The notes: generated by a model from the sequence alone, not told the origin. 64,000 nucleotides of DNA from Lachnospiraceae bacterium (GCA_017558145.1 JAFYWF010000116.1:4415-68414), one strand, 5' to 3'; shown: positions 30,709 through 54,717, counted from the stretch's first letter. Translations and numbers: made by a program.

Positions 30709-30710
30709 TC

Positions 30711-31841: not shown

Positions 31842-31852
31842 GTATTTTACCT

Positions 31853-32929
31853 CTACTTATTAAATCTACCTACAAAATCCATTGTCGAACAATCTGTTAA
31901 TGGAAGTTTAATACTTTTACCTTCCGCTGCTGACTTATAAATTGCTAATACCAATTCCATTGCTTTCTTACCATCCATCGCAGTAATATATGGCTGTCTA
32001 TCATTTTCTATGGCATTTATCATATCTGCATATAGCGGTGTATGACCATAGCCATATACATTCGGTGGATTCTCGTGGAATCTCTCCTTCACTACCTCCG
32101 GATCATCTAGTAAATCTGAAAATCTCCATTCTTCAATTATATTTACCGATTGTCCTCCTGCCTTCACGGTACCTTTCTCCCCAAATATATATAATGTCTC
32201 TTCTAAGTTTTTAGGATAAACATTTGTGGTCCCATCAATCATCCCATAACTTCCATTTTTAAACTTTACTAAAGCAATTCCTAAATCTTCCGCTTCTATG
32301 TAGTCATGATTTAATTTGTCTGTCATACCCACTACTTCTACAATTTCACTTCCCATCATCCAACGAAGCAAGTCAATATTATGAATACATTGATTCATTA
32401 ATGCACCACCATCCTGTGCCCACGTACCACGCCAATCTGCTCTATCATAGTACTCATGGTCTCTGCACCATCTGATATGTGCTGTTCCATAAAAAAGTCT
32501 ACCAAAACGATTCATATCTATCGCTTCTCTGATAATCTGTACTGACTTATTAAATCGATTCTGATGACATGCACTAACCTTCACATGATACTTTATAGCA
32601 GCTGCAATAATTGCATCCGCATCCTTTATAGATAAAGCAATCGGTTTCTCTATAATGCAATGACAACCATGTTCAATACAATATAGTGCAATTTCTGCAT
32701 GCTTACCACTTTCCGTGCATATTGCAACTAACTCCGGTTTTTCTTTATCCAACATTTCCTTATAATCAGTATGGCTTTTTACTTCCTCCCCAAGTTTAAA
32801 TTTCAATCTTTTGTCTTCCATACATGCTTCTACCACATCACAAATCGCTACTATTTCTAACTTATTATTCTGTGCTGCCACTATATGATTTGGTGAGATT
32901 CTGCCACATCCAATTAATGCATATCTCAT
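31853..32929 (-). CDS. Gfo/Idh/MocA-family NAD sugar oxidoreductase (WbpB-like)
   Basis: MRYALIGCGRISPNH..., EKPIALS, and a C-terminal alpha/beta dimerisation domain. It sits next to the aminotransferase and acetyltransferase. Confidence 0.75.
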   Translation of the reverse strand: MRYALIGCGRISPNHIVAAQNNKLEIVAICDVVEACMEDKRLKFKLGEEVKSHTDYKEMLDKEKPELVAICTESGKHAEIALYCIEHGCHCIIEKPIALSIKDADAIIAAAIKYHVKVSACHQNRFNKSVQIIREAIDMNRFGRLFYGTAHIRWCRDHEYYDRADWRGTWAQDGGALMNQCIHNIDLLRWMMGSEIVEVVGMTDKLNHDYIEAEDLGIALVKFKNGSYGMIDGTTNVYPKNLEETLYIFGEKGTVKAGGQSVNIIEEWRFSDLLDDPEVVKERFHENPPNVYGYGHTPLYADMINAIENDRQPYITAMDGKKAMELVLAIYKSAAEGKSIKLPLTDCSTMDFVGRFNK

Positions 32930-38003: not shown

Positions 38004-38027
38004 TTTTACCTCTTAAGTAAATGCATA

Positions 38028-38762
38028 TCACTTCTCTGATACTAGACTTGTCAAACTTTCCGGTATATTTGCTGCTGCACGCTCATAATCCTCTAAAAAA
38101 TCCACTTCAGCCCAAAAAGCATCTTCTGTAGAAACAGTTTTTATGTCGTAATTTTCTTCATCGATTAATCTTTGTATTGCACTTTCAAAATAAGCTGTAA
38201 ATTCCTTTTCTTTCAAAAGTTGTTTAGTTTTTGCTTTTAATGCAGGCAGCACCTCTTTACGAAAAGAAGCCATCCCTATAAATTCGCCTTCAGCTTCATC
38301 CAATGACATTTGCTTTGTGATTTCGATTACTTTTCCATTTTTACTACGTACCTTCATGGCTTCGTCATCACACTTTTTATAATCCACCGGAAGAATTACA
38401 TCTGCTTCTAATTTAAGCATTTTTTCAAAGATAATTGGCTCGCACAGAGTATCTGCATGCAAATATACAAAATCATCACTTAAGGCTTCCATTCCCATAT
38501 AAAACGATCCCAGCACATTCACCATTTCATAAAAAGGATTATACATTAAACACACATTGTCCATATCTTTTGTCAATTCTTCAAAGGCTTCACACTGATA
38601 TCCTGTGACAATAACTATTTTCTCAATTCCATAATATTGCAATAATTGCAGATTATATTCAATCAATTTTTTACCTGCGATTTCTGCAAAGGATTTTGGT
38701 TTCCCTTCCGTTAATTTCCCTAATCTGCTGCCTTTTCCGGCTGCCATAATAATTGCCTGCAT
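38028..38762 (-). CDS. LicC-like sugar/alcohol-phosphate nucleotidyl(cytidylyl)transferase
   Basis: MQAIIMAAGKGSRLGKLTEGKPKSFAEIAGKKLIEYNLQLL is the NTP_transferase G-rich loop. 244 aa. Confidence 0.8.
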   Translation of the reverse strand: MQAIIMAAGKGSRLGKLTEGKPKSFAEIAGKKLIEYNLQLLQYYGIEKIVIVTGYQCEAFEELTKDMDNVCLMYNPFYEMVNVLGSFYMGMEALSDDFVYLHADTLCEPIIFEKMLKLEADVILPVDYKKCDDEAMKVRSKNGKVIEITKQMSLDEAEGEFIGMASFRKEVLPALKAKTKQLLKEKEFTAYFESAIQRLIDEENYDIKTVSTEDAFWAEVDFLEDYERAAANIPESLTSLVSEK

Positions 38763-38764
38763 AT

Positions 38765-39913
38765 CTAATTCTCCATTGCTTTCTTAAATATTTTTTTAAT
38801 AATATCCGATTCTTCACTTAATTTATCATTAGAAAGATTTCCTGTTACCTGACCGCTCAATTCATCCAGCATTTGCTCTTGTATTCCCAAATCAGATAAT
38901 AAATACAAGATGTCTAATTTATTCAAAAATACCTTAAACATATTTTCTGCCTCTTCTGCAGACTTTACTTTTGAGTATCCTAACCCATTTAATATCTGAT
39001 TTATTTTTTCTTGATTAACTTCATATTCATATTTTATCCATGCGGGGTATAGTGCCAACAATCCTGCTCCGTGACTGGTATCTGTATATGCTCCTATAGA
39101 ATACTGCATACGATGCGGTAAACATGTTCCTACATTTGCAAGATTCATTCCTACTATCATGCTGGCATAACACATCTGACTTCGTGCTTCATGATTATCC
39201 AAATCCTGTTTTAATAACGAAAGATTATGACCTACAATCTGAATTGCTTTTTCTGATATCATCTCAGAAAACGGATTTGCTTTTACAGCTACATAACTCT
39301 CAATAGCATGCGCCAAAACATCAAATCCTGTCTCCATAGTTATTTTTTCCGGAACTGTCCATGTAAACATATCGTCTACAATCGCAATTTTCGGCAAAAT
39401 ATTTTTACCGCGTATTCCTGTTTTAATTCTGTGATATGTGCTGGAAATAATTGCTCCTTTACTTAGTTCAGTGCCGGTTCCTGCTGTTGTAGGAATTGCA
39501 ATAATTGGCAGAGTCTCTTTTCTCGGCTCTTTTCCTTCCAATAAATATGTCTCGATAGGCTCTTCTACAGGTATTCCTACTGCAACTGCTTTGGCAGCAT
39601 CAATAGCACTTCCTCCACCAAATCCAATGACACAATCAATTGATCTTTCTTTTCCAATCTCAATTGCCTGTTTTACTTCTTCTAACTTTGGATTTTGACT
39701 AATCTTATCGTAAATATATATCTTATTATTTCCGATTATCTCAACAATTGCTTGCTGAATTAACTGCTGATATCCATGTTTCACAAGACTTCTTCCGGTA
39801 GTAATAATCATTATATTTCCGATTAATCTCGCTTTTTCTTTTTGCAATGCCTCTTTCCATATATTGGTTCCAAAATAAATCTTAGTAGATAATTCAAAAG
39901 TAAATTCTTTCAT
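38765..39913 (-). CDS. Iron-containing (group III) alcohol dehydrogenase family oxidoreductase
   Basis: VIGFGGGSAIDAAKAVA, with downstream His-rich metal ligands (DVLAHAIE, CLPHRMQYS). Confidence 0.8.
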   Translation of the reverse strand: MKEFTFELSTKIYFGTNIWKEALQKEKARLIGNIMIITTGRSLVKHGYQQLIQQAIVEIIGNNKIYIYDKISQNPKLEEVKQAIEIGKERSIDCVIGFGGGSAIDAAKAVAVGIPVEEPIETYLLEGKEPRKETLPIIAIPTTAGTGTELSKGAIISSTYHRIKTGIRGKNILPKIAIVDDMFTWTVPEKITMETGFDVLAHAIESYVAVKANPFSEMISEKAIQIVGHNLSLLKQDLDNHEARSQMCYASMIVGMNLANVGTCLPHRMQYSIGAYTDTSHGAGLLALYPAWIKYEYEVNQEKINQILNGLGYSKVKSAEEAENMFKVFLNKLDILYLLSDLGIQEQMLDELSGQVTGNLSNDKLSEESDIIKKIFKKAMEN

Positions 39914-39921
39914 ACATTTAT

Positions 39922-41454
39922 TTACAGATTTTCTATCCGTACCTCTCTATCATTTCTTATTTTGTCCAAAATCTCTATTCTTCTGACATATAAGTCTTTT
40001 AATGAATTATAAGTTTCTTTATACAATTCATACATATATATGTATTTACGGTGATTTTCCAAGTTTGGCTTTATAATCATTCTAATTAATGCAAATTTAT
40101 TAGCTGCTTCTTTCATATTCTGATAAACACCCTGACCTGCCAATACCATCATTGCTGCACCTGATGCTGTAGTTTCGAATTCTGCCAATACCATAACATC
40201 TCTTCCCAAAACATCGGCTTTAATTTGAGATATCAGGTTTATTCTCGCCAATCCCCCTGATAAACGTACAGATTCTATGTCCACTCCTGTTTCCTTTATT
40301 GCATCAATAATATCCAAGTCAATAAAGCCTGTACTTTCAAAAACGGCTCTTGTCATATCTTTACGTGTATGCATTCTTTCCAAGCCAAAGAAAACACCTC
40401 TGGCATTATTATCCCATACCGGTGTTCTCTCTCCCAATAAATATGGTAAGAAAATTAGACCTTTGGCTCCTATTTCAGATTCATTTGCATCTTTTTCCAT
40501 GATTTCATATGGATATTGTTCTCCCTGATAATAACATTGCTTTACCCATTCTATCAATCCTCCCCCTAAATTATTGGATCCTCCAACTATATTGGCATCT
40601 TCCTGATAGAATGGAACATTATATATCTTATTACTATTAACTAAACCTTTTTTCTTGCTTAAAGCTCTAAAAACAGTTACTGTGCCGGATACATCACTAG
40701 CTTCTCCTTCTTCTGATACACCACTGCCTATAAATGAACATATTGCATCATACGAAGTTACAACGACTTTAATATCTTGATTTGAATTTATTTTCTCCGC
40801 TGTATTCCGATTAATCTTCCCAATACAAACTCCTGTATCAGTTACTTCCGGTAACTTATTTACAGATATTCCTAATTTTTTTAGAAAAACTTCAGGATAC
40901 ATCTTTTTAGCCAAATCATAATGATACTTTGTTGCATTTAAATAATCTGTAACACATTCTCCGCAAAGTTTATAGATCAAATAATCATTAGGTGTCATAA
41001 AATAACGTGTTTTTTCAAACATTTCCGGTAAATTTCTTTTAACCCATAATATTTTAGGTAACATAAGACTTACAGACATATCTAATCCGGTATTCTTTTT
41101 AACTTCTTCAAATTCTTTCATTTCTGAAATCATTTGAACTTCTTTTTCTGCACGCTTATCTGAAACCATAAACGCTTTTCCTAACGGATTTCCATTAGAA
41201 TCAACACATACCAAACAAGATGCAGATGTTGTAACTGTTATATATTCTATCTTGACATTTCCGGCATCTTTTAATGCTTTTCTCATTACGATTTCAGCCT
41301 TTTCCCACCATTCCGCAGGATCCTGCTCAACCCTTTTATCATTTATTGCTGTATTTATTGCTATAGCTGCACTTCCGAGTTTTAAACCATTCTGATTAAA
41401 AATAATACATCGTATACTTTTTAATCCCATATTAATAACCATGACATTATTCAT
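39922..41454 (-). CDS. FGGY-family carbohydrate/polyol kinase
   Basis: ORF 39922..41472, whose track start is TTG. ATG at 41454 follows AAAAGGA. VMVINMGLKSIRCIIFNQNG...QDPAEWW, and a C-terminal GGLARINLISQIKADVLG. Confidence 0.8.
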   Translation of the reverse strand: MNNVMVINMGLKSIRCIIFNQNGLKLGSAAIAINTAINDKRVEQDPAEWWEKAEIVMRKALKDAGNVKIEYITVTTSASCLVCVDSNGNPLGKAFMVSDKRAEKEVQMISEMKEFEEVKKNTGLDMSVSLMLPKILWVKRNLPEMFEKTRYFMTPNDYLIYKLCGECVTDYLNATKYHYDLAKKMYPEVFLKKLGISVNKLPEVTDTGVCIGKINRNTAEKINSNQDIKVVVTSYDAICSFIGSGVSEEGEASDVSGTVTVFRALSKKKGLVNSNKIYNVPFYQEDANIVGGSNNLGGGLIEWVKQCYYQGEQYPYEIMEKDANESEIGAKGLIFLPYLLGERTPVWDNNARGVFFGLERMHTRKDMTRAVFESTGFIDLDIIDAIKETGVDIESVRLSGGLARINLISQIKADVLGRDVMVLAEFETTASGAAMMVLAGQGVYQNMKEAANKFALIRMIIKPNLENHRKYIYMYELYKETYNSLKDLYVRRIEILDKIRNDREVRIENL

Positions 41455-41618
41455 TGTTAATTTCCTTTTCAATTATAATCAGTCTCTTTTCAAAATTCTA
41501 CTTTTGTAAAAGTAAAAAGACATCGAAAATCGATGCCTTATAAATCATACTAATATTATATCACTTCCTGTGATACTCTTATACGAGTTTTGCTTCCCTG
41601 CATCTTATTCTGATAATA
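41455..41618 (-). ncRNA. Conserved 5' leader, copy L2 (twin GGA-loop hairpins plus an intrinsic-terminator-like hairpin)
   Basis: In RNA sense: UGC-AGGGAA-GCA (rc 41591-41602), AUCAC-AGGAA-GUGAU (rc 41560-41574), and GGCAUCGA-UUU-UCGAUGUC (rc 41519-41537) followed by UUUUUACUUUU (rc 41507-41518). The SD AAAAGGA and the ATG at 41454 follow. Confidence 0.5.
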
Positions 41619-41665: not shown

Positions 41666-43462
41666 TTACTTGCTCTTGGGTAAATACAGCTCTGGTACAT
41701 TAGTAATTATATCTGTCACACCAAACATAGCATATTTTTCAAGATGCTTTTCCTTTAGCTGTCTTGTCTGCCCAAAGAAAGGCTCTTCTCCATTCCATGC
41801 TCTTACAGGAATACCTTCTGTCTGTTTGATTTCTTCTTCATCTACAGACAATCCTCCAATCCATGGATGAATTGCATCTGCTTCGTATTTTAGATAATCC
41901 AATCGACACTGTTCCATATCCACTCCCAAGATTCCGGTTTGAGCATATGGTGCTAACTTCTTAATTAGTCCCATGGATTCTGGTAGGAAGGAAGAATATA
42001 CAATATTCTCTTCCAAACCATAATCAGCTACCAATTGAAGAACTTTTTCTTCCATACCTTCATAGCGGATAATACTGTTCTTCAGCTCAATGTTAATCAG
42101 AAATTTTCCCTCCGGTCTTTCTTCTTCACACACAGAATATAATAAACGGAATACTTCTTCTAAGGTAGGAATTGTTGTATATGTTCCATTTACACTTGCA
42201 ATTTTCAAGTTCTTCAGTTCTTGCAAAGTATAATCACAAACCCTTCCTTTTCCATTGGTGGATCGATCTACAGTTTCATCATGTATTACTACCAATTCTC
42301 CATCTTTGGTCAGCTGAACATCCAATTCGATTCCAGTAATACCTTTGATTTCAGAAGCTGCTTTGAATGCTTCCAATGTATTCTCAGGATAAGCCATACT
42401 GCAACCTCTATGAGCCCAGAATCGAATATTCTTTTTATCTATACTATTGTTTGTATCTTCTTTATCATCTTGAGAATTACTGTTCAATTTCTTAGTCTCT
42501 TGTTTTCGATTTCGATATTTCAGATACTGTTCCATTTTATCTGCCAACCAAATACTCTCTTCCGGTGTTACAATAGGGACCATTCCATCTAATATCTGTT
42601 CCACAAAAGCCTTAACTTCATATCGAAGCCCTTGCCCTTCATACGGGAATTCGTAAATGTCTTTTTTGTTAGGGTTTTCATATCTTACTTCAAATCGTCT
42701 TGTTAACCACCAAGGAGCCTGCACCACAATATAACCTACACTTCCTGCAATTACTAATTGGCCCTCCGACTTTACTTCCAATCCCGTTTTCGCTAACCCT
42801 GTCGCACTACCATATTCAAAACTTGCTTTAGTATAGATATCCGTTCCGTTTATAGCCAAAGCGGAATGAAACTGAAGATCTGTTTCTTCCGTTCCCAATA
42901 GTTTCAAGGAAGGAAGCATGGAATAAGTACCTAATTCTAAGAAACTTCCTCCATGATTAGAATCTAAAATTTCTCTCATATTGGTTGAACCTAATTTAGA
43001 AAAACATGCTTCCACATCATATATTTTTCCTATTTTTCCGCTTTTAATTACCTGTTGCAATGCCTGGAATCCAGGACAATACGCTGTCTTGATACCTTCC
43101 ATTAGTACAAGATTATTTTCTTCTGCTATAGCAAATAACTCTTCCGCTTGTGCTTTAGAAAATACCATAGGCTTTTCACACAATACATGTTTTCCTGCCA
43201 ACAACATCTTTTTGGCATATTCATAATGTGTTTCATGCGGTGTTGCAATATATATAGCATCTACAGCCTCTATAAATTCATCTTTTTTATCGGTATAATT
43301 TGAAATAAACAATTCCGTTGCAAATAATTTTGCACTATTAAGATTAGGATTATAAACTGCACTTACTTCTATTCTTTCCACATATCTTGCTTCAGGTACA
43401 AAACGCTTTGCAATTCGTCCAGTTCCAATGATACCTAATCTTATTTTATAATTATTTTCCAT
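41666..43462 (-). CDS. Fusion: Gfo/Idh/MocA oxidoreductase (N) + glycerophosphodiester phosphodiesterase GDPD (C)
   Basis: N-terminus IRLGIIGTGRIAKRF...EKPMVFS. C-terminus FWAHRGCSMAYPENTLEAFKAA...GIELDVQLTKDGELVVIHDETVDRSTNG (GDPD HR..E..D..H pattern). The N-domain is a paralog of the C-domain of 48834..50177. Confidence 0.75.
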   Translation of the reverse strand: MENNYKIRLGIIGTGRIAKRFVPEARYVERIEVSAVYNPNLNSAKLFATELFISNYTDKKDEFIEAVDAIYIATPHETHYEYAKKMLLAGKHVLCEKPMVFSKAQAEELFAIAEENNLVLMEGIKTAYCPGFQALQQVIKSGKIGKIYDVEACFSKLGSTNMREILDSNHGGSFLELGTYSMLPSLKLLGTEETDLQFHSALAINGTDIYTKASFEYGSATGLAKTGLEVKSEGQLVIAGSVGYIVVQAPWWLTRRFEVRYENPNKKDIYEFPYEGQGLRYEVKAFVEQILDGMVPIVTPEESIWLADKMEQYLKYRNRKQETKKLNSNSQDDKEDTNNSIDKKNIRFWAHRGCSMAYPENTLEAFKAASEIKGITGIELDVQLTKDGELVVIHDETVDRSTNGKGRVCDYTLQELKNLKIASVNGTYTTIPTLEEVFRLLYSVCEEERPEGKFLINIELKNSIIRYEGMEEKVLQLVADYGLEENIVYSSFLPESMGLIKKLAPYAQTGILGVDMEQCRLDYLKYEADAIHPWIGGLSVDEEEIKQTEGIPVRAWNGEEPFFGQTRQLKEKHLEKYAMFGVTDIITNVPELYLPKSK

Positions 43463-43516: not shown

Positions 43517-44449
43517 TCATATGTTATCTATTTGTTTGGCCATGGATACTCCGGTATCATAAATTACCTTTAGTACTGCTTCTGATAGTTTATGAGGAAA
43601 ACTATTCATGGCAGGAAATGTTTCAAAACTTAAGGTACCTTTATATCCTATTTCTTTTAATGCCTTTAAAATTCCTTCCCAATCAGCACCTCTATCTTCT
43701 CCCTTACCGAATGTGTATGGTAGCTGATGAGTATCGTCTGTTCCATTATTTTCATGAAGATGTAATACCTTAATTCTTGAACCCATTTTCTTAATAAAAT
43801 CATATGGATCTTTCTTTGCCAATTGAAGATGTCCGGTATCAAGGCAGAAACCAAATAATTCTTCCCCTGCATACTCATTAAGAGTGTCTATATACCAAAT
43901 AGCATCTTCTACATCAGAACATACACCTTCTACAATTCTTCCTCCAACACTTTCGTAAAGATTTTCTAAACAAACTCTAACACCACACTGTTTTAACAAT
44001 GGCACCAACATCTTAAAATATTCCAGATTCGTTTGCTTTTCTGCTTCTTTTCCTTTGCTATATTGTAATTTAAAAGGATGGATTACTACCCACGGTACTC
44101 CCATGGCTTCCGCAATAATAATACTTTTAGGAATTACATTTCCTTGCATATACGCCGTTGCTTTTCCATTTCCCGGTACATACACAGGATATGGTGCATG
44201 CATCTGCGAAGGTAATAAACCATACATATCCATTGCATGTTTATATTTTCCAAAAATAGTTACCAACTCCGGTATCTCTTTGTCAAAAAACTTATTTAAT
44301 TTTCCTGCATATACATTGCTATTGATTAAAAATGCATCTAGATTAAAATCCACCTTGGTAAATCCAGCATTTGCAATTTTTTGAAATCCCTTCGTTATAT
44401 CGCCTTGTTCTGTAACAATTCCTTTTGTTTGTACTCCTATTGTCAACAT
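43517..44449 (-). CDS. Xylose-isomerase-like TIM-barrel sugar(-phosphate) isomerase/epimerase
   Basis: VCLENL...FCLDTGHLQLA...VLHLHENNGTDDTHQLPYTFG...GTLSFETF. Confidence 0.7.
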   Translation of the reverse strand: MLTIGVQTKGIVTEQGDITKGFQKIANAGFTKVDFNLDAFLINSNVYAGKLNKFFDKEIPELVTIFGKYKHAMDMYGLLPSQMHAPYPVYVPGNGKATAYMQGNVIPKSIIIAEAMGVPWVVIHPFKLQYSKGKEAEKQTNLEYFKMLVPLLKQCGVRVCLENLYESVGGRIVEGVCSDVEDAIWYIDTLNEYAGEELFGFCLDTGHLQLAKKDPYDFIKKMGSRIKVLHLHENNGTDDTHQLPYTFGKGEDRGADWEGILKALKEIGYKGTLSFETFPAMNSFPHKLSEAVLKVIYDTGVSMAKQIDNI

Positions 44450-44458
44450 ATTTTTCTC

Positions 44459-46495
44459 CTATACATCATACAAATCATGATAGCATCTATATTTAATTCC
44501 CATACTATCTAATTGTGCTCCAATTGGTCCATAATATTGGTTTGCAATAAACACCAATCTTTCTTTCTCAGGAACTTCTAAAATTGCTTTCGGTGATTTA
44601 ATAATTAATCCAAATCTTGTCGTGTTCCATATGGAAGAATCGTTATCCACTAAAAATTCTGGTCTATATTTAGTACCCCAAATTTCTGTAAAATTATACG
44701 CCATAACTCCAGCCCCAAACAAAATAATCTTTTTATTTGGCTGATTCAAATACTCTTCCAATCGAATAACCTCTTCCCATTCATTTGCTATACTTCCTAA
44801 CAAAGAAATATAGGGCATGTGTAAATCATTTGGTGCTTTATTAAAGATTCCTTCTGTGTTAAATATCAAACGTCCTGCATAATGCTGTCTTCTGAGTTCG
44901 CCGATGATTCTATGCCAATCTGTGGTTTTATTTCCTCGTCCCATAGTATAGGTATATGGTATCTGCCTATCATTATGAATTCCATCATTATCATTTATAT
45001 GTACTAATTTAAGTAAATTGCCTGCCTCCTCTATCATAGTACGAAGGTTCTTGGATAATACATTCCCATTACCAACATCAATACTAATTCCAATACATTC
45101 CTTATCACAGATGCGATTAATCTGCCTTGCTATTCTTTTTAAATTAGTTATCTCTGATGCTTCACTGCAAATATATTCTTGTTGCTTAGAGATCACATAC
45201 CCATTTTCAAGATAGATTTCTATTTCCTTATCTATCAAGAGATCAACAAAACTTTCCAAGATATATGAAATAATACGTGTAGAGGCTACTCCTTCTGTAT
45301 TGATTACAATATAGCTTACACCCATGTCCTCCGCTATCATTACTGCATGAAAAAACTGTTCTTCATCTAAATCAATTCCCTTTAAGATTATCCCTGTTGG
45401 AACCGGCGTGCTATTCTGAGAGATTACTCCATCCTGCCATTGTTTATATTCATCCAAATCTTCATAGTTTATTTCCGTTTCTGTAAATCCCTGTTCACAT
45501 AAGAATGCCGGAACATCTTCCCTCCACACATGTTTCATATAAGGGATTCCTGTTTTAAATTTTCTATCCTTCATTACTCCAATACTTTCTCCTGTCATTA
45601 GTTGTAAATTCTTATCTGCTTTTTCTATGGATTCTGAACCTAAGATAAATTCTCTTCTGAAATCATAATAGAAAGGCGACTCTTTTGCATAATCCCACCA
45701 CAATTGCTCCATTTCAAAATGTCCAATTTTAGGATTCCAAGGTTTTCCCGCCAAAAAATGTACCAGCGTTACTTTTTCTTTCGCTTCTTTGTAACCAACA
45801 CCAAAATTGTGTGCAAATCTGGCATATAAATTATATTTAACAGTTTCTACGAATTTTACATCTTTCCAATGAACATAATTCAACAAATCCTGATCCGGTG
45901 TTTCCAACCGATAATCATACTTTTGGGCTACTTCCATGTATGCCTTTAATCCATATTTTTCTCGAAGTAGCTTTAAGTTCATTAATAATACACCAGAATT
46001 AAAATAGGTGAATCCTTCCCTTACATGTTCTTTGAACATTTCATCACGATATTGAAACACACCAATACCGGAAAATGGTTCCGGACAAGCACACAAAGCA
46101 TTTCCATTAAATTCTGTATGATATAGTTCTTTTAAGGAATGATTTACAACAATATCTACATCCAGATACAAAATTCTCTCTATTTCCTCCGGTAATATTT
46201 CCGGAAGCACCAATCGATAAAAAGACTCCACCGGCCAATTTGCATATTCTGTACATTCTTTTGGAAAATAAGATGGTTCAATCTGCAACCAATGCACATA
46301 TCCCCCATAGGATTGTATCAAGTTTTCTAAACAATGTTTTTCTTTTTCAATCAGTTCGCTTTGCAATAGATAAATATGCATCTGAACATCTTTACCTTGG
46401 TTTTCAAATAAAGACATCAACATTACATAAGTATATCTGACATAATTTCTATCCAATGCAACTGCAATATTCATTCTGCTATCATCCATGTGCAT
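44459..46495 (-). CDS. Triple fusion: GT8 glycosyltransferase - xylose-isomerase-like TIM barrel - Rossmann-like FGxG...DN..W module
   Basis: N-terminus MNIAVALDRNYVRYTYVMLMSL...LYLDVDIVV...FNSGVLLMNL (GT8). Middle LVHINDNDGIHNDRQIPYTYTMGRG...RLIFNTEG, parallel to the 43517 protein. C-terminus KKIILFGAGVMAY...LVDNDSSIWNTTRFGLIIKSP. Confidence 0.7.
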   Translation of the reverse strand: MHMDDSRMNIAVALDRNYVRYTYVMLMSLFENQGKDVQMHIYLLQSELIEKEKHCLENLIQSYGGYVHWLQIEPSYFPKECTEYANWPVESFYRLVLPEILPEEIERILYLDVDIVVNHSLKELYHTEFNGNALCACPEPFSGIGVFQYRDEMFKEHVREGFTYFNSGVLLMNLKLLREKYGLKAYMEVAQKYDYRLETPDQDLLNYVHWKDVKFVETVKYNLYARFAHNFGVGYKEAKEKVTLVHFLAGKPWNPKIGHFEMEQLWWDYAKESPFYYDFRREFILGSESIEKADKNLQLMTGESIGVMKDRKFKTGIPYMKHVWREDVPAFLCEQGFTETEINYEDLDEYKQWQDGVISQNSTPVPTGIILKGIDLDEEQFFHAVMIAEDMGVSYIVINTEGVASTRIISYILESFVDLLIDKEIEIYLENGYVISKQQEYICSEASEITNLKRIARQINRICDKECIGISIDVGNGNVLSKNLRTMIEEAGNLLKLVHINDNDGIHNDRQIPYTYTMGRGNKTTDWHRIIGELRRQHYAGRLIFNTEGIFNKAPNDLHMPYISLLGSIANEWEEVIRLEEYLNQPNKKIILFGAGVMAYNFTEIWGTKYRPEFLVDNDSSIWNTTRFGLIIKSPKAILEVPEKERLVFIANQYYGPIGAQLDSMGIKYRCYHDLYDV

Positions 46496-46628: not shown

Positions 46629-47660
46629 ATGGCAAAAGTGAGTGTGATTATTCCCTGCTTCAATGCACAGTTTTATATAGACAGATGCCTTACCTCAGTT
46701 ACTTCCCAATCCATCGGAATAGATTCCTTAGAAATCATATGTGTTGATGATGCTTCTACGGATAATACCTGGGAAAAACTGCAGCAATGGGAACAGCGAT
46801 ATCCCAATCAGATTATGATTCTTCATTTTGATACCAATTCCAGACAAGGAACTGCCCGTAATGTAGCATTACAATATGCCACTTCTCCTTGGATAAGCTT
46901 CGTGGATTCCGATGACTGGATTGAGCCTGATTATTACCAAAAGCTACTATATTGTGGAGAACAGACAGCTTCTGATATCGTAATCTGTAAGACTATACGG
47001 GATTCTTCTTTAGAATTATCATTTTTAGATAATACTAAAACAGGTGAACCGAATCGTTTTATGGTGATAGACTCTTTGGAAAAACGCAAACTATTCTTAG
47101 TGCTTCGCAGCATGGATTCTCTTGCTTGTGCAAAGATTGTTCGTAAAGATTTTCTGTTAGAAAATCAGATTTTTTTTCCGGAATACCTTACCTACGAAGA
47201 TACCTATTGGGGCTCTTTGCTTCATCTGTATACAAACAGGGTGTATTTTTTAGAAGAAACTCTTTATCATTATTATATTAATGAACATTCTTCTGTTTTA
47301 CAGTCTAACTCGGAACATCATTTGGATCTTCTTACGGTACAGATGCGGTTATGGAACGAATGGGAAGAACGAGGCTTTCTAGAAAATTTCAGAGAAGAAT
47401 TAGAATATGATTTTCTTCATTCCTGTTATCTTCGCTTTTTGAAGGTTCTGGTTTACCGCTACCAAACACCCCCTTTATCACTGTTTCTTTTATTACAGCA
47501 ATTGATTCAGAAACGAATTCCGGATTTTTTAAATAACTCTTATTTACAACAAATAGAGCAACCGGATTTTTATAAAATATTATTTCAAGCAATAACATTA
47601 CCCATGAATAAGGAATCGTTTATGGAATTTACTACATCTATCCAAAGAATTGGAATGTAG
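46629..47660 (+). CDS. GT2 glycosyltransferase (paralog of 51317..52360)
   Basis: VSVIIPCFNAQFYIDRCLTSVTSQSIGIDSLEIICVDDASTDNT...SFVDSDDW. Confidence 0.85.
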   Translation: MAKVSVIIPCFNAQFYIDRCLTSVTSQSIGIDSLEIICVDDASTDNTWEKLQQWEQRYPNQIMILHFDTNSRQGTARNVALQYATSPWISFVDSDDWIEPDYYQKLLYCGEQTASDIVICKTIRDSSLELSFLDNTKTGEPNRFMVIDSLEKRKLFLVLRSMDSLACAKIVRKDFLLENQIFFPEYLTYEDTYWGSLLHLYTNRVYFLEETLYHYYINEHSSVLQSNSEHHLDLLTVQMRLWNEWEERGFLENFREELEYDFLHSCYLRFLKVLVYRYQTPPLSLFLLLQQLIQKRIPDFLNNSYLQQIEQPDFYKILFQAITLPMNKESFMEFTTSIQRIGM

Positions 47661-47831: not shown

Positions 47832-48812
47832 ATGTTACAATTCGAACCATCTTATTTTAACGCAGAAGACCGCGATGGTTTCCACATCAAATCTATGGTA
47901 AAACGCTGCTGGGCTGTTCAGCTTAAGGTTCTATCAGAAATTGATGCTATCTGCAAACGCCACAATATTATGTATTATGCTGAATGTGGAACTCTTTTAG
48001 GCGCTGTCAGACATGGTGGCTTTATTCCTTGGGATGACGATTTAGATATTGGTATGCGACGCGTGGATTATACCCGCTTTCTTCATTATGCAAAAACAGA
48101 ACTTCCGGAAGGATATTCTATTATTAATGTAAAGGGAAATGGTATCCAATTAATTTGTAGAGTTGTAAATACCCTTTTTATTACCATGAATCCTAAACAA
48201 CTAGAAGAATTCTATGGTTTTCCCTATATTGGCGGTATTGATATTTTTATAACCGATAATATTCCTAAAAACAAAAATGAAGAAAATGTTCAACTGGAAT
48301 TATTGGCCGCCGTTAACAGCTTAGCCATTAATTGGGATAAAAAATTTTCTAATACACAATCTGATAATCTGGATGTAGAATCTGTAGAAAATGCTTCTAT
48401 GGAAGAAAAAATGGAATTAGTCAAACAAATTGAAGAATTATGTAATATAAAATTGGATCCAAACAAATCCATGAAACGTCAGCTACTTATTCTATCAGAT
48501 CAGATTTGTGCCATGTATTGGGATGACGAACCAAACGAAGTTTCCTTAATGCCTGATTTGGTGCTTAAAAGAGAGTTTCGTTTTCCGGTAAGCTATTATG
48601 CCTCTACCATAGATATGCCGTTTGAAAATACTACCATTCCTGTACCGAAAGAATATGATAAAATTTTACGAAAACGATATGGTGACAACTATATGACTCC
48701 AATCCAATGTACAAGTTCTCACAATTATCCTTTTTACTGTCATCAGGAAAAACGTTTATTCGCTGAATTTGAAAAACAGAATCTACCAATTCCTGCTTAT
48801 TTGAAAGAATAG
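47832..48812 (+). CDS. LicD-family phosphotransferase, copy 2
   Basis: AECGTLLGAVRHGGFIPWDDDLDIGMRRVDYTRF. Confidence 0.85.
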   Translation: MLQFEPSYFNAEDRDGFHIKSMVKRCWAVQLKVLSEIDAICKRHNIMYYAECGTLLGAVRHGGFIPWDDDLDIGMRRVDYTRFLHYAKTELPEGYSIINVKGNGIQLICRVVNTLFITMNPKQLEEFYGFPYIGGIDIFITDNIPKNKNEENVQLELLAAVNSLAINWDKKFSNTQSDNLDVESVENASMEEKMELVKQIEELCNIKLDPNKSMKRQLLILSDQICAMYWDDEPNEVSLMPDLVLKREFRFPVSYYASTIDMPFENTTIPVPKEYDKILRKRYGDNYMTPIQCTSSHNYPFYCHQEKRLFAEFEKQNLPIPAYLKE

Positions 48813-48833
48813 TCTCCTACAGGAGGTTTGCTT

Positions 48834-50177
48834 ATGAAAAAAGTTATTACATACGGTACTTATGATTTATTTCATCAAGGTCATTATAATCTGTTAAAAC
48901 GTGCCAAAGAATTAGGCGATTACTTAATTGTTGGTGTTACTACAGAGCATTACGATGAATCCAGGGGAAAGGTTAATGTCATTGATCCTTTACTGGAACG
49001 CATTGAAAATGTCCGAAAAACCGGGTTTGCGGATATGATTATTGTAGAAGACCATGAAGGACAAAAAATTGAAGATATTCAAAAATATAATGTGGATATT
49101 TTTACCTTAGGATCTGATTGGGTTGGTACTTTTGATTATTTAAAACAATTTTGTAAGGTTATTTATTTAGATCGTACGCCCAATATTTCCTCTACTCAAT
49201 TACGTCAAACCAGAAGCCAGATTATTCGTACCGGTATTATCGGCACCGGACGAATCGCACCCCGTTTTCTTTCTGAATCCAAATACGTAAGTGGAATTGA
49301 AATTACTTGTGCATACAATCCGGAAAAAGCAGAAGGAAAATTATTTGAAATCAATCATGATATCAAATGCTTTTCAGATTCCATTGATGAATTTTTATCT
49401 TATGTAGATGCCGTTTATATTGCATCTCCCAACGAAACTCATTATGAATACGCTAAAATTGCTTTAGAACAAGGTAAACACGTATTAAGTGAGAAACCGT
49501 TAGCTTTTACCAAAGAAAAAACTTTAGAGCTACATGATTTAGCAGATGCCAATAACTTAATTTTATTAGAAGGAATTAAAACTGCTTATTGTCCCGGTTT
49601 TCAGCAGCTTCTTAACATTGCCCATAGTGGACGAATTGGCAAAATATACGATGTGGAAGCCACTTTTACACGTCTGGCAAATCCGGAAGCCAGGGAATAC
49701 ACAGATTATAACTATGGTGGTTCTTTTTTGGAATTTGGTGGATATACCATGCTTCCTATTATTAAATTGTTAGGAACCGATTATAAAGAGATACAGTTTA
49801 ATAGTATCTTGAATGAAGATGGTAATGATATCTACACTAAACTTCACATAAAATATAAAGATACTATGGCATCCGCAAAAACCGGTATTGGTATTAAATC
49901 AGAAGGACAATTGGTTATCGCTGGAACCAAAGGATATATTTTAGCCGAATCCCCTTGGTGGCTTACGAAAAAATTTGTAGTTCGCTATGAAGATCCTACC
50001 GTGATAGAAACCTACGAACCTAATTTCCAAGGAGATGGTCTTCGTTATGAAATTGCAGAATTTGTTGCATCTATTAATGGTTACAGCAAAAATAGCTATA
50101 AATTAACCAAAGAAGAATCTCTTGCCATGGCTGCCATTACAGAAGAATTTATGAAACTCCGTAAGGAACAAAAATAA
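48834..50177 (+). CDS. Fusion: TagD-type (HxGH) cytidylyltransferase (N) + Gfo/Idh/MocA oxidoreductase (C)
   Basis: ORF 48828..50177, whose track start is TTG. ATG at 48834 lies 7 nt after AGGAGG. KKVITYGTYDLFHQGHYNLLKRAKELGDYLIVGVTT, then IRTGIIGTGRIAPRF...EKPLAFT. Confidence 0.8.
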   Translation: MKKVITYGTYDLFHQGHYNLLKRAKELGDYLIVGVTTEHYDESRGKVNVIDPLLERIENVRKTGFADMIIVEDHEGQKIEDIQKYNVDIFTLGSDWVGTFDYLKQFCKVIYLDRTPNISSTQLRQTRSQIIRTGIIGTGRIAPRFLSESKYVSGIEITCAYNPEKAEGKLFEINHDIKCFSDSIDEFLSYVDAVYIASPNETHYEYAKIALEQGKHVLSEKPLAFTKEKTLELHDLADANNLILLEGIKTAYCPGFQQLLNIAHSGRIGKIYDVEATFTRLANPEAREYTDYNYGGSFLEFGGYTMLPIIKLLGTDYKEIQFNSILNEDGNDIYTKLHIKYKDTMASAKTGIGIKSEGQLVIAGTKGYILAESPWWLTKKFVVRYEDPTVIETYEPNFQGDGLRYEIAEFVASINGYSKNSYKLTKEESLAMAAITEEFMKLRKEQK

Positions 50178-50225: not shown

Positions 50226-51302
50226 ATGTTACCAATTTCTATCTGCATGATTATGAAAAATGAAGAAAAGAATCTGAAGACATGTTTGGAATCTGTCAAA
50301 TGCTTAAATTGTGAATTAATTTTAGTAGATACCGGTTCCACAGATTCTACTCTGGAAATTGCAAAAAAATATACGGATAAAATCTATCATTTTGATTGGA
50401 TTCATGATTTTGCAGCTGCAAGAAATTATTCTCTTTCACTTGCTATCAATGATTGGGTACTTGTTTTAGACTGTGATGAATCCATATCTTCCATAGATAT
50501 GGATTCTCTTTCTATGTTTATGGATATTCACCCTGATAAAATAGGTCTTCTTTCCCGTCGTAACCATTATGAAATGAACCAAAGCGATTCCGTATATACA
50601 GATCAAGTTGAACGTTTTTTTAATCGCAAGCTATATGAATACCGTGGTGAAGTTCATGAACAGGTAGTACCAAAAGCTTCCGCTATTTCTTTAAATCTTG
50701 GAAAAAAAGAATCGATTAATCTGTATTTAGAGCACTTTGGATATGTAGGCTCTCCGGAAGAATTACATGCAAAAGCTATGCGTGATGCTGAGATACTGAA
50801 AATAATGCTTGTAAAAAATCCTAATGATCCCTATCTCTATTTTCAATTAGGACAAAGCTACAATATGCTTCATGATGATGAGAAAGCTTTGTATTATTAT
50901 GATAAAGGACTTTCCTTTGATGTAAATCCCGAAGCAGAATATGTTCAAATGATGGTCATAGGATATGGATATGCCCTACTTCATTTAGAACGATATGAGC
51001 AGGCGCTGGGATTAGCTAATATTTATGATGTCTTTGCCGTATCCGCTGATTTTATTTGCCTTATGGGTTTAATCTATTTACGCACCGGTAATCTACTTAG
51101 TGCTATGGGTGAATTTTTAAAAGCAGCTTCCCATCCGGTTGCTCATATGGAGGGGGCCAACTCTTTTATTCCTTATTACAATATGGGCTGTATCAATGAA
51201 TTGTTGGGGGATTATAATATGGCACTTTCCTTATATAAAAAATGTGGTTCTTTTCCTATGGCTTTATCTAAGATTCAAGAATTAGAATCTAAAATACAAT
51301 AA
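50226..51302 (+). CDS. GT2 glycosyltransferase with C-terminal TPR-like region (paralog of 14842..15954)
   Basis: ISICMIMKNEEKNLKTCL...VDTGSTDST...DFAAARN...LDCDE, and YFQLGQSYNMLHDDEKALYYYDKGLSFD. Confidence 0.8.
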   Translation: MLPISICMIMKNEEKNLKTCLESVKCLNCELILVDTGSTDSTLEIAKKYTDKIYHFDWIHDFAAARNYSLSLAINDWVLVLDCDESISSIDMDSLSMFMDIHPDKIGLLSRRNHYEMNQSDSVYTDQVERFFNRKLYEYRGEVHEQVVPKASAISLNLGKKESINLYLEHFGYVGSPEELHAKAMRDAEILKIMLVKNPNDPYLYFQLGQSYNMLHDDEKALYYYDKGLSFDVNPEAEYVQMMVIGYGYALLHLERYEQALGLANIYDVFAVSADFICLMGLIYLRTGNLLSAMGEFLKAASHPVAHMEGANSFIPYYNMGCINELLGDYNMALSLYKKCGSFPMALSKIQELESKIQ

Positions 51303-51316: not shown

Positions 51317-52360
51317 ATGGCCGCAATTAGTGTAATCATACCTTGCTACAACGTTTCCTCCTATATCGATAGATGCCTTACTTCCATTACTTCACAAACC
51401 ATAGATCTTTCCCTCCTGGAGATTATTTGTATCGATGATGCATCCACCGATGATACCTGGCAAAAGCTTCAAACATGGGAAGCAAAGTATCCGGATAATA
51501 TTATGATTATCCAATGTAAAGAAAACGGACGGCAGGGAAAAGCCCGCAATATTGGCTTATCCTATGCTTCTGCTAATTGGATTGCTTTTATAGATTCCGA
51601 TGATTGGATAGAACGTGACTATTTTCAAAAAATGTATGCTGCTGCCTGCAGCACTGCTGCTGATTTGATTACCTGTGGAAATGTACGTGATTTTTCTTAC
51701 CAATTACAATATCGACATGATAACAATTATGACTATTCCAAAGATGCTGTTTGTGGCAAATATATTACAATAGACTCTGAAGAAAAGAAAAAACTATATA
51801 TCCGTATGATGAGTTCTGACTTAACCGCTTGGGGAAAACTAATCAAAAAGGATATTTTATTAGACAATGAAATCTTTTTCCCCGAAGGACTGGCTTACGA
51901 AGATAACTATTGGGGAACTTTATTACATTTTTATGTTAATAAAATTTATGAAATAGACCTTCCCTTATATCACTATTTTGTAAATGAGAAATCTACCATT
52001 CTTTCCATGAATGCAGATTATCACGAAGATTTCCTAACTGTCCAATTACTAAAATGGAATACTTTTTTGGAACGTGGATTTTTTGAACAATATTCAGAAG
52101 AAATTATCTTTGATTTTCTTCACGCATGTTATTTAGATTACCTTAAAATCATTTGCTTAAGATTCGATCCACCATCCTTTAGTAGATTCCTACTACTAAA
52201 AGAAATTATATTAACACACATTCCTAATTATTCTCACAATAAATACTTTGAACAAGGCTTCACAGAATTCCAACACATGCTAATAGACATGCTTCGATTA
52301 CCTGTGAACAAAGACCAATTTCTTGAAATTTCCGGATATATTAAACTTCATGGAATTTAA
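51317..52360 (+). CDS. GT2 glycosyltransferase (paralog of 46629..47660)
   Basis: ISVIIPCYNVSSYIDRCLTSITSQTIDLSLLEIICIDDASTDDT...AFIDSDDW. Confidence 0.85.
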   Translation: MAAISVIIPCYNVSSYIDRCLTSITSQTIDLSLLEIICIDDASTDDTWQKLQTWEAKYPDNIMIIQCKENGRQGKARNIGLSYASANWIAFIDSDDWIERDYFQKMYAAACSTAADLITCGNVRDFSYQLQYRHDNNYDYSKDAVCGKYITIDSEEKKKLYIRMMSSDLTAWGKLIKKDILLDNEIFFPEGLAYEDNYWGTLLHFYVNKIYEIDLPLYHYFVNEKSTILSMNADYHEDFLTVQLLKWNTFLERGFFEQYSEEIIFDFLHACYLDYLKIICLRFDPPSFSRFLLLKEIILTHIPNYSHNKYFEQGFTEFQHMLIDMLRLPVNKDQFLEISGYIKLHGI

Positions 52361-52634: not shown

Positions 52635-53495
52635 TTAGCCAAGTAATGCCAATACACCCTGATTAGACTGGTTAGCCTGAGCCAACATAGACTGTCCTGC
52701 CTGAGCAAGAATGTTGTTGTTAGAGAATCTAACCATTTCAGCTGCCATATCTGTATCACGAATCTGGCTTTCTGCTGCTGTTGTATTTTCTACAACGTTG
52801 TCTAAGTTTCTAATTGTGTGTTCAAGACGATTCTGGATAGCACCGAGTTCAGAACGCTGTGTAGAAACTGTTTCAAGCGCTTGCTTAACATAATTGTTAA
52901 GGCTGGAGAATTTACTTGTTGTAAATACTGTTGTAGAAGCTGTAATGCTTGCCTGTGTATAGAATGTAGAAATAGAAGAATAGTAAGATGTAGATAAACT
53001 ACTACAACTCATAGAATCAATAGTAATCTTAATATACTGTCCTGTTTCTGCACCAACCTGAAGACCGATATTAGTGAATTTACCATCTAATAAGCTCTTT
53101 TCGTTGAAAGTTGTTGTAGATTTAACTCTGTCGATTTCGCTCATTAACTGCTGAACTTCCATAGCGATGTAGTTACGGTCTGCTGTTGCAAGAGTTCCGT
53201 TTTCACCTTTAACTGCTAATTCGTTCATACGCTGTAACATATCATGTACTTCAGTTAAAGCACCTTCTGCTGTCTGTACACAAGAGATACCGTCAGATGC
53301 GTTTGCAGAAGCCTGTGTAAGACCTCTAATCTGTCTTCTCATTTTTTCAGAAATAGCTAATCCAGCTGCGTCATCTGCTGCACGGTTAATTTTGTAACCG
53401 GAAGATAATTTTTCTGTGGATTTTGCCTGTGCACCTGTTGTGATGTTAAGCATTCTCTGAGAATTCATTGCTGTAAGATTGTGTTGTACTACCAT
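52635..53495 (-). CDS. fliC: Flagellin (short, 286 aa; D0/D1 core with a minimal Ser/Thr/Tyr-rich central segment)
   Basis: N-terminus MVVQHNLTAMNSQRMLNITTGAQAKSTEKLSSGYKINRAADDAAGLAISEKMRRQIRGLTQA. C-terminus LGAIQNRLEHTIRNLDNVVENTTAAESQIRDTDMAAEMVRFSNNNILAQAGQSMLAQANQ. It has a strong SD (GGAGG). Confidence 0.95.
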   Translation of the reverse strand: MVVQHNLTAMNSQRMLNITTGAQAKSTEKLSSGYKINRAADDAAGLAISEKMRRQIRGLTQASANASDGISCVQTAEGALTEVHDMLQRMNELAVKGENGTLATADRNYIAMEVQQLMSEIDRVKSTTTFNEKSLLDGKFTNIGLQVGAETGQYIKITIDSMSCSSLSTSYYSSISTFYTQASITASTTVFTTSKFSSLNNYVKQALETVSTQRSELGAIQNRLEHTIRNLDNVVENTTAAESQIRDTDMAAEMVRFSNNNILAQAGQSMLAQANQSNQGVLALLG

Positions 53496-53796: not shown

Positions 53797-54717
53797 TCAA
53801 TCTATATGATACAATACTCTATCTTCTTCTGGTATCATCAAAGCCTCCATTGCTTTTTCCAATGTAAGATTCATACTTTTCATAAGATTTTCCAGATTTT
53901 CCTTGATTGCCTCTTGTCTTCCTTCTTGCCTTCCACTTTCCTTATGATCATTCCATGCTTTACACATATCAAATCTCTCCCCTTCTTCTGTTTTTACTTT
54001 ATATTTGTTAATGTTTATATTAATACCTAAAACTCCAAAAATAGCTCTCATAGATTCTTTATCCAGCAAATAACCATTCATGTATACACTTATTATCTCA
54101 TTCATTTTGTTTTCGTCTTTTGAATTTAATAATAATTCAAATATAAAGCGATTTTCTGTTTTAAATTGAGAAAAATCTTTATAATCATGATAGTCAAAAA
54201 GATTTAGTCTGTAATTTGTTACAAATGGTTGCAACCTTTCATCCATCTCCAATAACTCATATAACGATCGTGCTCCATCCCAAGCTTCATTTTTTCCTAA
54301 ATATAAGATTAATGTGATTATTGGTTGAAATTTTTCATTTTTTCTCATTTGACTTAAAAATTCATTCTTAGTAAATTTATATCTAGCATTAATCCATTTC
54401 CTATAAGAATGTTTTTGCTGCTTTAGATAGCCAACCGCTTCTTCCAGCATGACTCTTAACACCATTCTGTAATCTACATAAGATTGATTTTCTAAAATAC
54501 AAATTGAAATTTTCTGTCCTTTCCACCTATAAACCTTGTCTCTTATCACCTTTATAGCTTCTTCATTTTTTTCATGATGCACCAGTTGAGAATCTAATTC
54601 TTCCAATTCCTCTTCCCTGATAATTTGTTCGCCATGAAACATAACTCCATTAATCATATCCGCAAAACGTCTTTTATCATCAAAATAGTCGCTTTGCCAC
54701 AAATCTTTTTTTCCCAA
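53797..54717 (-). CDS. Rpn-family recombination-promoting nuclease / putative transposase (YhgA-like), copy 2; TTG start
   Basis: DYFDDKRRFADMINGVMFHGEQII..., ISICILENQSYVDYRMVLRVM, and a C-terminal GRQEGRQEA repeat followed by a helix. These are typical of this family. Confidence 0.7.
   Translation of the reverse strand: MGKKDLWQSDYFDDKRRFADMINGVMFHGEQIIREEELEELDSQLVHHEKNEEAIKVIRDKVYRWKGQKISICILENQSYVDYRMVLRVMLEEAVGYLKQQKHSYRKWINARYKFTKNEFLSQMRKNEKFQPIITLILYLGKNEAWDGARSLYELLEMDERLQPFVTNYRLNLFDYHDYKDFSQFKTENRFIFELLLNSKDENKMNEIISVYMNGYLLDKESMRAIFGVLGINININKYKVKTEEGERFDMCKAWNDHKESGRQEGRQEAIKENLENLMKSMNLTLEKAMEALMIPEEDRVLYHID

Follow-up and report, generated by a model that had tools for sequence, protein, structure and literature searches.

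A TagD-like cytidylyltransferase fused to a Gfo/Idh/MocA oxidoreductase and paired with LicD in a Lachnospiraceae flagellin glycosylation island: a possible source of CDP-glycerol-type phosphate

In a 64,000-nucleotide stretch of DNA from a gut Lachnospiraceae bacterium (GCA_017558145.1 JAFYWF010000116.1:4415-68414), analyzed over its whole length and called the window below, a gene for a LicD-family phosphotransferase is followed by a gene in which a TagD-like cytidylyltransferase (CT) is fused to an oxidoreductase of the Gfo/Idh/MocA family (Gfo). With about even confidence, this pair is proposed as the core of a flagellin 'post-glycosylation modification' module, which would make and attach a phosphate of the cytidine diphosphate (CDP)-glycerol type. 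The proposal is built on domain identities, intact motifs, gene order and natural fusions, from which we infer the identity of the substrate, the redox direction, the order of the two steps carried out by the fusion, and the flagellin glycan as acceptor. The features of the pair are as follows.

47832-48812, + strand: LicD-family phosphotransferase, 326 amino acids (PF04991, 127 bits; PWDDDLD motif)
48834-49217, + strand: TagD-like CT domain of the fusion, residues 1-128 (PF01467; identity to TarD/TagD; motifs)
49224-50177, + strand: NAD(P)-dependent Gfo domain of the fusion, residues 131-447 plus stop codon (PF01408 and PF22725; motifs)

In the proposed scheme, the Gfo domain would reduce, with NAD(P)H, the carbonyl group of a phosphate drawn from central metabolism, in the simplest case dihydroxyacetone phosphate (DHAP), either as the free phosphate or in its CDP form. 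The TagD-like domain would couple the phosphate to cytidine monophosphate from cytidine triphosphate, the two halves together yielding a CDP-glycerol-type donor, and LicD would then place the glycerol-type phosphate as a phosphodiester on a sugar of the O-glycan, which would be assembled on flagellin in the cytoplasm by the neighboring GT2-TPR, GT2 and GT8 enzymes. A Gfo domain fused to a glycerophosphodiesterase (GDPD), and TIM-barrel proteins of family PF01261, would belong to the same pathway as feeders, or as editors of its product.

The PF04991 match of LicD spans the complete Pfam profile (positions 1-227 of 227, 127 bits), its acidic DxD-type motif is present in the translation as PWDDDLD, and the protein is predicted to move the phospho-head group from a CDP donor to the flagellin glycan. 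The open reading frame of the fusion (48828/48834-50177, + strand) has two candidate starts, of which the ATG at 48834, 21 nt past the LicD stop codon, is the likely one, because homologues begin MKKVITYG. Its Pfam domains are CTP_transf_like (PF01467, 62 bits, residues 7-127), GFO_IDH_MocA (PF01408, 81.6 bits with a cut-off of 24, residues 133-247) and PF22725 (29.1 bits, cut-off 27). All matches of LicD and the fusion lie above the Pfam cut-offs and far exceed chance, the AlphaFold2 model of the fusion has two domains with a mean pLDDT of 82.4, and the catalytic motifs are intact in both halves. An earlier note on this DNA had described a LicD gene upstream of an HxGH cytidylyltransferase fused to a full Gfo/Idh/MocA dehydrogenase, and this was confirmed by the open reading frames, by the Pfam domains, and by the motif TYGTYDLFHQGHYNLL, which was found in the translation of the fusion. 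Scans for promoters and terminators gave fewer promoter-like sites than in shuffled controls and marked no clear operon boundaries.

The CT half is about 50% identical to the solved enzymes TarD (2b7l, E 2e-35) and TagD (1coz, E 1e-31). Its HxGH motif, H14-Q-G-H17 within FHQGH, is invariant (24/24) and conserved in at least 97% of 82 homologues, R44, K46 and R56 together with R114-T-P-N-I-S-S-T121 align with the phosphate-binding residues of TagD/TarD (K44, K46 and R55 in TagD) and with RTxGISTT, and a GSDW motif is also conserved. Searching of Pfam at E values up to 0.01 gave no match of this half to the IspD or NTP_transferase families.

In the Gfo half, the Rossmann motif GIIGTGR is invariant among homologues, and the window protein keeps E220-K221-P222 (EKP) and E300-F-G-G-Y304, the acid-x-x-x-His/Tyr motif of the family. 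A structure search with the model returned as nearest folds of this half uncharacterized Gfo proteins, dimeric dihydrodiol dehydrogenase (2o48) and the NDP-sugar 3-ketoreductase KijD10, with TM-scores to solved members of 0.81-0.86 normalized to target, and gave no characterized close neighbor besides those from the sequence search. KijD10 and dihydrodiol dehydrogenase share the fold (TM-score 0.81-0.83, normalized to target) and belong to the Lys/Tyr branch of Gfo/Idh/MocA, the Lys and Tyr pair being common to the window Gfo, and NADP(H) is bound in the nearest solved structures. They differ in having only 20-25% identity, in acting on a TDP-ketosugar or on dihydrodiols and xylose, and in having no fused CT.

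In other genomes, the parts of the module are joined in single proteins, namely Metallophos-CT-Gfo-GDPD (many clusters), Metallophos-CT-Gfo, CT-Gfo-GDPD, TIM-Gfo-GDPD, LicD-TIM, and a 904-amino-acid LicD-Gfo-GDPD that is indexed in 729 blocks of a metagenome collection. Since natural fusions join them, CT, Gfo, GDPD, TIM-barrel, LicD and metallophosphoesterase are read as acting in one pathway. A C3 head group would agree with the activity of GDPD enzymes, which free glycerol 3-phosphate from diesters. A GpsA-CT-Gfo fusion was found in one case; GpsA is a DHAP reductase, and the Gfo domain of this protein is without both Lys and Tyr (ETP for EKP; F for Y). Attachment of GpsA where the catalytic pair of Gfo is gone is the pattern expected if Gfo reduces DHAP or a close analogue, and suggests that it may do so.

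Loss of catalytic residues was scored more widely with the signature Lys221 (EKP) and Glu300-x-x-x-Tyr304. The signature was intact in 62/62 second-copy or multi-domain Gfo domains and in 40/72 CT-fused Gfo domains, and was lost in the other 32 of these (about 44%), by change of Tyr to Ser/Asn/Phe/Asp in 26 and of Lys to Asn in 6. The term 'bifunctional', applied to the fusion in the earlier note, may on its intact motifs be kept for the window protein but does not extend to the whole family, since the Gfo half appears dispensable in many orthologues. Complementarity was counted in the 56 loci flanked by 5 kb or more in each direction, from related genomes and with phylogeny not corrected for. 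Each of the 25 loci whose fused Gfo is degenerate also encodes an intact second Gfo (20) or an aminotransferase (5); where the fused Gfo is intact (31 loci), both are absent from 7 (Fisher p = 0.013, without correction for phylogeny). This rule and the GpsA fusion are most simply read as pointing to a phosphate of central metabolism that bears a carbonyl group and would be either reduced, by Gfo or GpsA, or aminated, by the aminotransferase; DHAP could play this part with each of the three enzymes, the products being glycerol phosphate or serinol phosphate.

The protein search for the fusion reached saturation at 8000 scored candidates, and the top 120 matches, which were inspected, all carry both domains at 69-90% identity. 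Relatives are present in at least 211 species-representative genomes, nearly all Lachnospiraceae (Lachnospira, Agathobacter, Acetatifactor, Roseburia, Butyrivibrio) and among them cultured strains such as Roseburia lenta NSJ-9, Lachnospira hominis NSJ-43, [Lactobacillus] rogosae CLA-AA-H255 and Agathobacter sp. LCP21S3_B2, the source annotations of homologues being generic only, and a literature search found no published characterization of the fusion with LicD, of flagellin phosphoglycerol, or of Lachnospiraceae flagellin phosphodiesters. Of the possibility raised earlier, that this might be a common and already characterized enzyme, the first part thus holds, and no characterizing paper was found for the second. 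Neighborhoods were counted in 80 related loci. In this survey, which the earlier note had called for, its pairing of LicD with the fusion was found to recur: LicD lies no farther than 8 kb from the fusion in 60 loci and in 34 immediately precedes it in the same orientation. The gene directly downstream of CT-Gfo is Gfo-GDPD in 20 loci, a stand-alone Gfo paralogue in 18 (a second Gfo in 38 in all) and a PF01261 TIM-barrel gene in 11; a PF01261 TIM-barrel protein is present in 26 loci, and in 14 CT-Gfo has next to it a homologue of a GT8-TIM protein of the window (34-40% identity). The module is also constantly accompanied by GDPD, by TIM-barrel proteins and by a second Gfo. A flagellin gene lies no more than 10 kb from the fusion in 37 of the 80 loci, with the recurring order fliD-fliS-flgN-fliC-fliC-(GT2)-LicD-CT-Gfo-Gfo-GDPD-TIM, and in one very prevalent gut species the block is placed inside the late flagellar operon as fliC-fliW-csrA-flaG-fliD-fliS-fliC-LicD-CT-Gfo-(LicD-Gfo-GDPD)-x-TIM.

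In the window, the pair is located within about 45 kb of glycosylation genes (about 17140-62500) that surround a single flagellin gene, with the following features.

41666-43462, - strand: Gfo/Idh/MocA and GDPD glycerophosphodiesterase, 598 amino acids (Pfam; 53% identity to the Gfo half of the fusion)
43517-44449, - strand: PF01261 'xylose isomerase-like' TIM-barrel protein, 310 amino acids, putative accessory enzyme (PF01261, 88 bits)
44459-46495, - strand: GT8 glycosyltransferase fused to a PF01261 TIM-barrel domain, 678 amino acids (Pfam)
46629-47660, + strand: GT2 glycosyltransferase, opening the + strand run (PF00535, 110 bits)
50226-51302, + strand: GT2 glycosyltransferase with C-terminal TPR (PF00535 and TPR families; best NCBIfam match, SunS-family peptide glycosyltransferase)
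51317-52360, + strand: GT2 glycosyltransferase, closing the + strand run (PF00535, 118 bits)
52635-53495, - strand: flagellin, 286 amino acids, presumed glycan carrier (Flagellin_N 143 bits, Flagellin_C 96 bits)

The + strand run has the order GT2, LicD, CT-Gfo, GT2-TPR, GT2, and the GT2-TPR protein is, by its domains, of the type predicted to glycosylate proteins such as flagellin. The outer GT2 paralogues are 48% identical and flank the LicD/CT-Gfo/GT2-TPR block, a bracketing that suggests modular duplication within the island. On the - strand, divergent from the pair, are GT8-TIM, the PF01261 TIM-barrel protein and Gfo-GDPD, then an XylB-like FGGY kinase, an iron-dependent alcohol dehydrogenase (Fe-ADH), an NTP transferase and a TagF-like transferase. 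The fusion of a paralogous Gfo to GDPD, also reported in the earlier note, was borne out by Pfam and by the 53% identity of the Gfo parts; its K/E/Y signature is intact, and the GDPD motifs HRG and E..D..IHD are present in the translation. For the TIM-barrel protein, the best NCBIfam matches, to CbiR phosphodiesterase and ketose 3-epimerases, are weak.

Other genes of the island were noted alongside these. A second LicD (19672-20550, - strand) is 32% identical to the LicD of the pair, and a 779-amino-acid protein (24844-27183, - strand) has a C-terminal TagD-like CT domain, a weak methyltransferase match and a large middle part with no domain match; because of these two, the island may install two different phospho-head groups. 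Four co-directional genes at 36741-41472 (- strand), encoding the XylB-like FGGY kinase (267 bits, under the XylB cut-off), the lactaldehyde-reductase-like Fe-ADH, the NTP transferase (second-best match, inositol-1-phosphate cytidylyltransferase) and the TagF-like phosphotransferase, look like a separate second CDP-polyol module, which may be a route from a pentulose to a CDP-pentitol or a counterpart of pneumococcal wchX-gtp1-3; searching of Streptococcus with the window Fe-ADH gave AdhE-like matches only. A Gfo/Idh/MocA oxidoreductase, a DegT-type aminotransferase and a hexapeptide acetyltransferase in a row (30142-32929, - strand) are the usual 3-acetamido sugar nucleotide genes (WbpB/E/D-like) and are unrelated to the CT-fused Gfo paralogues. 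PD-(D/E)XK transposase-like (18514-19521, - strand), YhgA-like transposase (53797-54717, - strand) and HTH plus M78 peptidase (ImmA/IrrE-like; 23260-24339, - strand) genes are dispersed in the island, which fits frequent rearrangement of glycosylation cassettes.

Further observations concern proteins and gene sets that recur around such loci. An 857-amino-acid open reading frame of the window (20637-23210, - strand) has no Pfam match, and a family of about 697 amino acids, also without a Pfam match, is present in 19 of the 80 related loci, often just after the four-domain fusion (for example L055:9341-11434); either could be a candidate transferase without a recognized family. Five loci (L037, L040, L076, L078, L083) have five or six LicD paralogues around one CT-Gfo gene, which suggests several phospho-head-group additions or a short polymer, and the same loci encode a class V aminotransferase resembling PhnW, which scores 170 bits with the model for AEP aminotransferases, under its cut-off. 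In the flagellin islands of L028, L064, L085 and L008, trios of an IspD-type cytidylyltransferase, an SDR (epimerase/dehydratase family) and a TagF-like transferase resemble characterized CDP-glucitol/CDP-mannitol pairs, and by this analogy alditol-phosphate decoration of Lachnospiraceae flagellin glycans may be widespread too.

Several results weigh against a CDP-glycerol-type module as outlined above. On TIGR01518, the equivalog model of glycerol-3-phosphate cytidylyltransferase, the CT half scores 105.9-108.9 bits and fails the curated cut-off of 165.4 bits, with streptococcal Gct controls at 195 and 208 bits, and the family-invariant D73/H74 and a mostly acidic residue 75 (E75 here) stand where TagD has K72/N73/W74. 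The substrate may therefore not be sn-glycerol 3-phosphate; on these residues and scores, the phosphate used may be sn-3-, sn-1- or 2-glycerol phosphate, DHAP as such, or a larger compound. Because the genome encodes a housekeeping GpsA, it could in principle do without a second DHAP reductase. The CT domains of aminotransferase-linked and reductase-linked loci are 81% identical, compared with 82% within reductase-linked loci, and show three conservative class-specific changes, none of them at the active site; such equal conservation would favor cytidylyl transfer before the branch point, whereas the GpsA fusion would favor reduction first. A simple synthase-plus-transferase scheme leaves GDPD, TIM-barrel and metallophosphoesterase unexplained, the ketose 3-epimerase-like matches of PF01261 would be easier to understand if the head group were longer than C3, and the complementarity statistics come from related genomes without correction for phylogeny. 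As to other cytidylyltransferases, no protein of the 88% complete genome passes the TIGR01518 cut-off, and only the fusion CT and the second CT domain, ending the 779-amino-acid protein, were found.

The strongest rival, which is possible but unlikely, is that CT would make ordinary CDP-glycerol from housekeeping glycerol 3-phosphate, and that Gfo, Gfo-GDPD and the TIM-barrels would act later, converting glycerol phosphate, bound to CDP or to the glycan, by oxidation into a ketone or aldehyde that could be tailored further (aminated in loci with an aminotransferase; isomerized, inverted at C2, cleaved or trimmed elsewhere). The housekeeping GpsA and the equal conservation of CT whichever the downstream enzyme both speak for this order of events, as do the fusion of Gfo paralogues to phosphodiester-handling enzymes (GDPD, LicD) and not to free-phosphate ones, the nucleotide-linked substrate of the structural neighbor KijD10, the 4 of 56 loci that hold an intact Gfo together with an aminotransferase, and the pairing of Gfo with PF01261, which is typical of oxidize-then-eliminate/isomerize pathways and is the pattern of levoglucosan and C-glycoside catabolism. 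However, five aminotransferase loci are without any intact Gfo, so that the carbonyl could not come from Gfo oxidation there, replacement of Gfo by GpsA points to triose phosphate reduction, and CT lies under the curated TagD cut-off. Within the reductive, glycerol-type reading, a more speculative and rather improbable extension is that the product of Gfo is non-canonical (for example, sn-glycerol 1-phosphate or a CDP-dihydroxyacetone-derived polyol) and not a duplicate of that of GpsA, with GDPD, TIM-barrel and metallophosphoesterase forming a previously undescribed cytoplasmic editing system for flagellin-glycan phosphodiester head groups, which would vary the host-facing flagellar surface of abundant gut commensals.

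Less probable than later oxidation is that the fusion is a CDP-alditol synthase for four to six carbons, in which a ketose phosphate would be cytidylylated and reduced as in CDP-arabinitol, CDP-mannitol and CDP-6-glucitol synthesis, and LicD would be an alditol-phosphate transferase like FKTN/FKRP. Residues of the pocket region are smaller than those of TagD (W74 to E/D, R63/Y64 to G/F), at positions which, from CCT structures, we take to be near the head group, and the TIM-barrel partners resemble ketose 3-epimerases. There is precedent for cytidylyl transfer first and reduction second (PMC10918830), and ribitol phosphate transfer is possible for LicD-fold enzymes (PMC11982090). Set against this, characterized alditol-phosphate cytidylyltransferases have the IspD/NTP-transferase fold, and IspD, SDR and TagF modules occur separately in such islands; the window also has its separate candidate pentulose route at 36741-41472. 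The identity of CT to glycerol-3-phosphate enzymes (about 50%) and the GpsA and GDPD fusion partners, which point to glycerol phosphate, make a C3 glycerol-type head group appear more likely than a C5/C6 alditol. Of the CDP-alditol synthase plus transferase first suggested for this locus, the logic of reductase plus CT plus LicD is therefore retained, comparative genomics backing a reductive role of Gfo, and the C5/C6 alditol gives way to a glycerol-type product. An inositol head group, considered from IolG-like, IolE-like and GDPD similarities, was set aside as less likely, myo-inositol-1-phosphate synthase not being found in the 88% complete genome.

It is doubtful that the Gfo half of the window fusion is without chemistry, serving as a cofactor-binding scaffold, for example by pairing with the active Gfo-GDPD, with only CT catalytic. 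Such a role would account for the 32/72 orthologous fusions that lack the catalytic Lys or Tyr yet keep the Rossmann motif, and for the GpsA fusion lacking both, and an intact Gfo paralogue is available in the window; but Lys221, Glu300 and Tyr304 are all intact in the window protein, as in 40/72 orthologues, and in the seven loci where an intact fused Gfo is accompanied by neither an aminotransferase nor another Gfo, activity must reside in the fused domain. Decoration of a cell-wall polysaccharide or teichoic-acid-like polymer, with fliC adjacency incidental, is equally doubtful. Related fusions do occur in capsule/O-antigen contexts, beside Wzy or fused to a MATE/MurJ-type flippase, but scanning of the genes at 17140-63810 turned up no Wzx/Wzy, no initiating transferase and no ABC exporter, the GT2-TPR protein-type glycosyltransferase adjoins the fusion, and the block lies within a fliD-fliS-fliC operon in many species; the target is taken to be the flagellin glycan, and not capsule or teichoic acid.

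Lachnospiraceae flagellins are major human gut microbiota antigens and ligands of innate immune receptors, and to our knowledge almost nothing has been established about their decoration. Hundreds of species from gut and rumen carry the module, and the glycerol-type reading predicts a phosphodiester-linked glycerol-type head group on their flagella.

Among known systems, TagD/TarD (Gct) with a CDP-glycerol-using transferase (the TagF family, or the LicD family in streptococcal capsule loci) has in common with the window pair the CT fold, the catalytic motifs and the logic of a CDP-alcohol with a phosphotransferase, and one Streptococcus capsule-type locus (L121) has a LicD gene followed by an adjacent TagD-type CT gene. 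The window CT differs in being fused to Gfo, in falling under the TIGR01518 cut-off, in D73/H74, and in its placement in a flagellin island with GDPD and TIM-barrel partners. A search of 401 Streptococcus genomes with the fusion turned up no split CT and Gfo pair; the CTs that matched were TagD-like and stood alone (41-49% identity), and the Gfo proteins were distant and none adjoined a CT. In the CDP-2-glycerol pathway of S. pneumoniae (Gtp1/Gtp2/Gtp3 and WchX), a reductase, a nucleotidyl transferase and a phosphotransferase provide activated glycerol phosphate for a glycan, according to annotations in PMC3493582 and PMC1391919; its likeness to the window module would lie in these annotated functions.

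Bcs1 of Haemophilus influenzae and TarI/TarJ resemble the fusion in combining a reductase and a cytidylyltransferase to give a CDP-polyol, in one protein in Bcs1, with reduction before cytidylyl transfer (as cited in PMC10918830). Both folds differ, the CT being IspD-type and the reductase SDR (Bcs1) or MDR (TarJ), as do the C5 pentulose phosphate substrate and the capsule/teichoic acid target; the window fusion has neither an IspD-type CT nor an SDR/MDR reductase and is not of the Bcs1/TarIJ family. In the CDP-6-D-glucitol pathway of HS5.18/HS5.17 (Campylobacter jejuni) and Mnp1/Mnp2 (S. pneumoniae 35A), cytidylylation of a ketose phosphate comes first and NADPH-dependent reduction of the resulting CDP-ketose second (PMC10918830), a sequence that is also one of the two conceivable for the window fusion. 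The HS5.18/HS5.17 system differs in its NTP-transferase-fold CT, SDR reductase, separate proteins, hexitol head group and capsule target. The claim that the families of the fusion, a TagD-like CT (PF01467) and Gfo, are not those of Bcs1/TarIJ was thus upheld and extends to HS5.18/HS5.17, and if the proposed activity is correct, TagD-like CT plus Gfo/Idh/MocA would be a third, non-orthologous protein solution for reductase-plus-cytidylyltransferase CDP-polyol synthesis. LicD enzymes accept several CDP-alcohols (PMC11982090).

The nearest characterized flagellin system is FtaABCD of C. difficile (type A flagellin modification), in which CDP-threonine is tailored and then moved to GlcNAc-flagellin by a TagF-like enzyme (bioRxiv 10.64898/2026.02.12.704994). 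The window module would share with it a CDP-activated small head group, tailored while bound to CDP, and a phosphodiester onto the flagellin O-glycan, and its genes adjoin flagellin and flagellin glycosyltransferase genes, as in FtaABCD-type systems, an arrangement that recurs in related loci. FtaABCD differs in its N-methyl-threonine head group, in its FtaD transferase, which is TagF-like and not LicD, and in being without Gfo, GDPD and TIM-barrel enzymes, so that the CT-Gfo/LicD gene set is placed as a previously uncharacterized variant of a surface decoration already known in kind.

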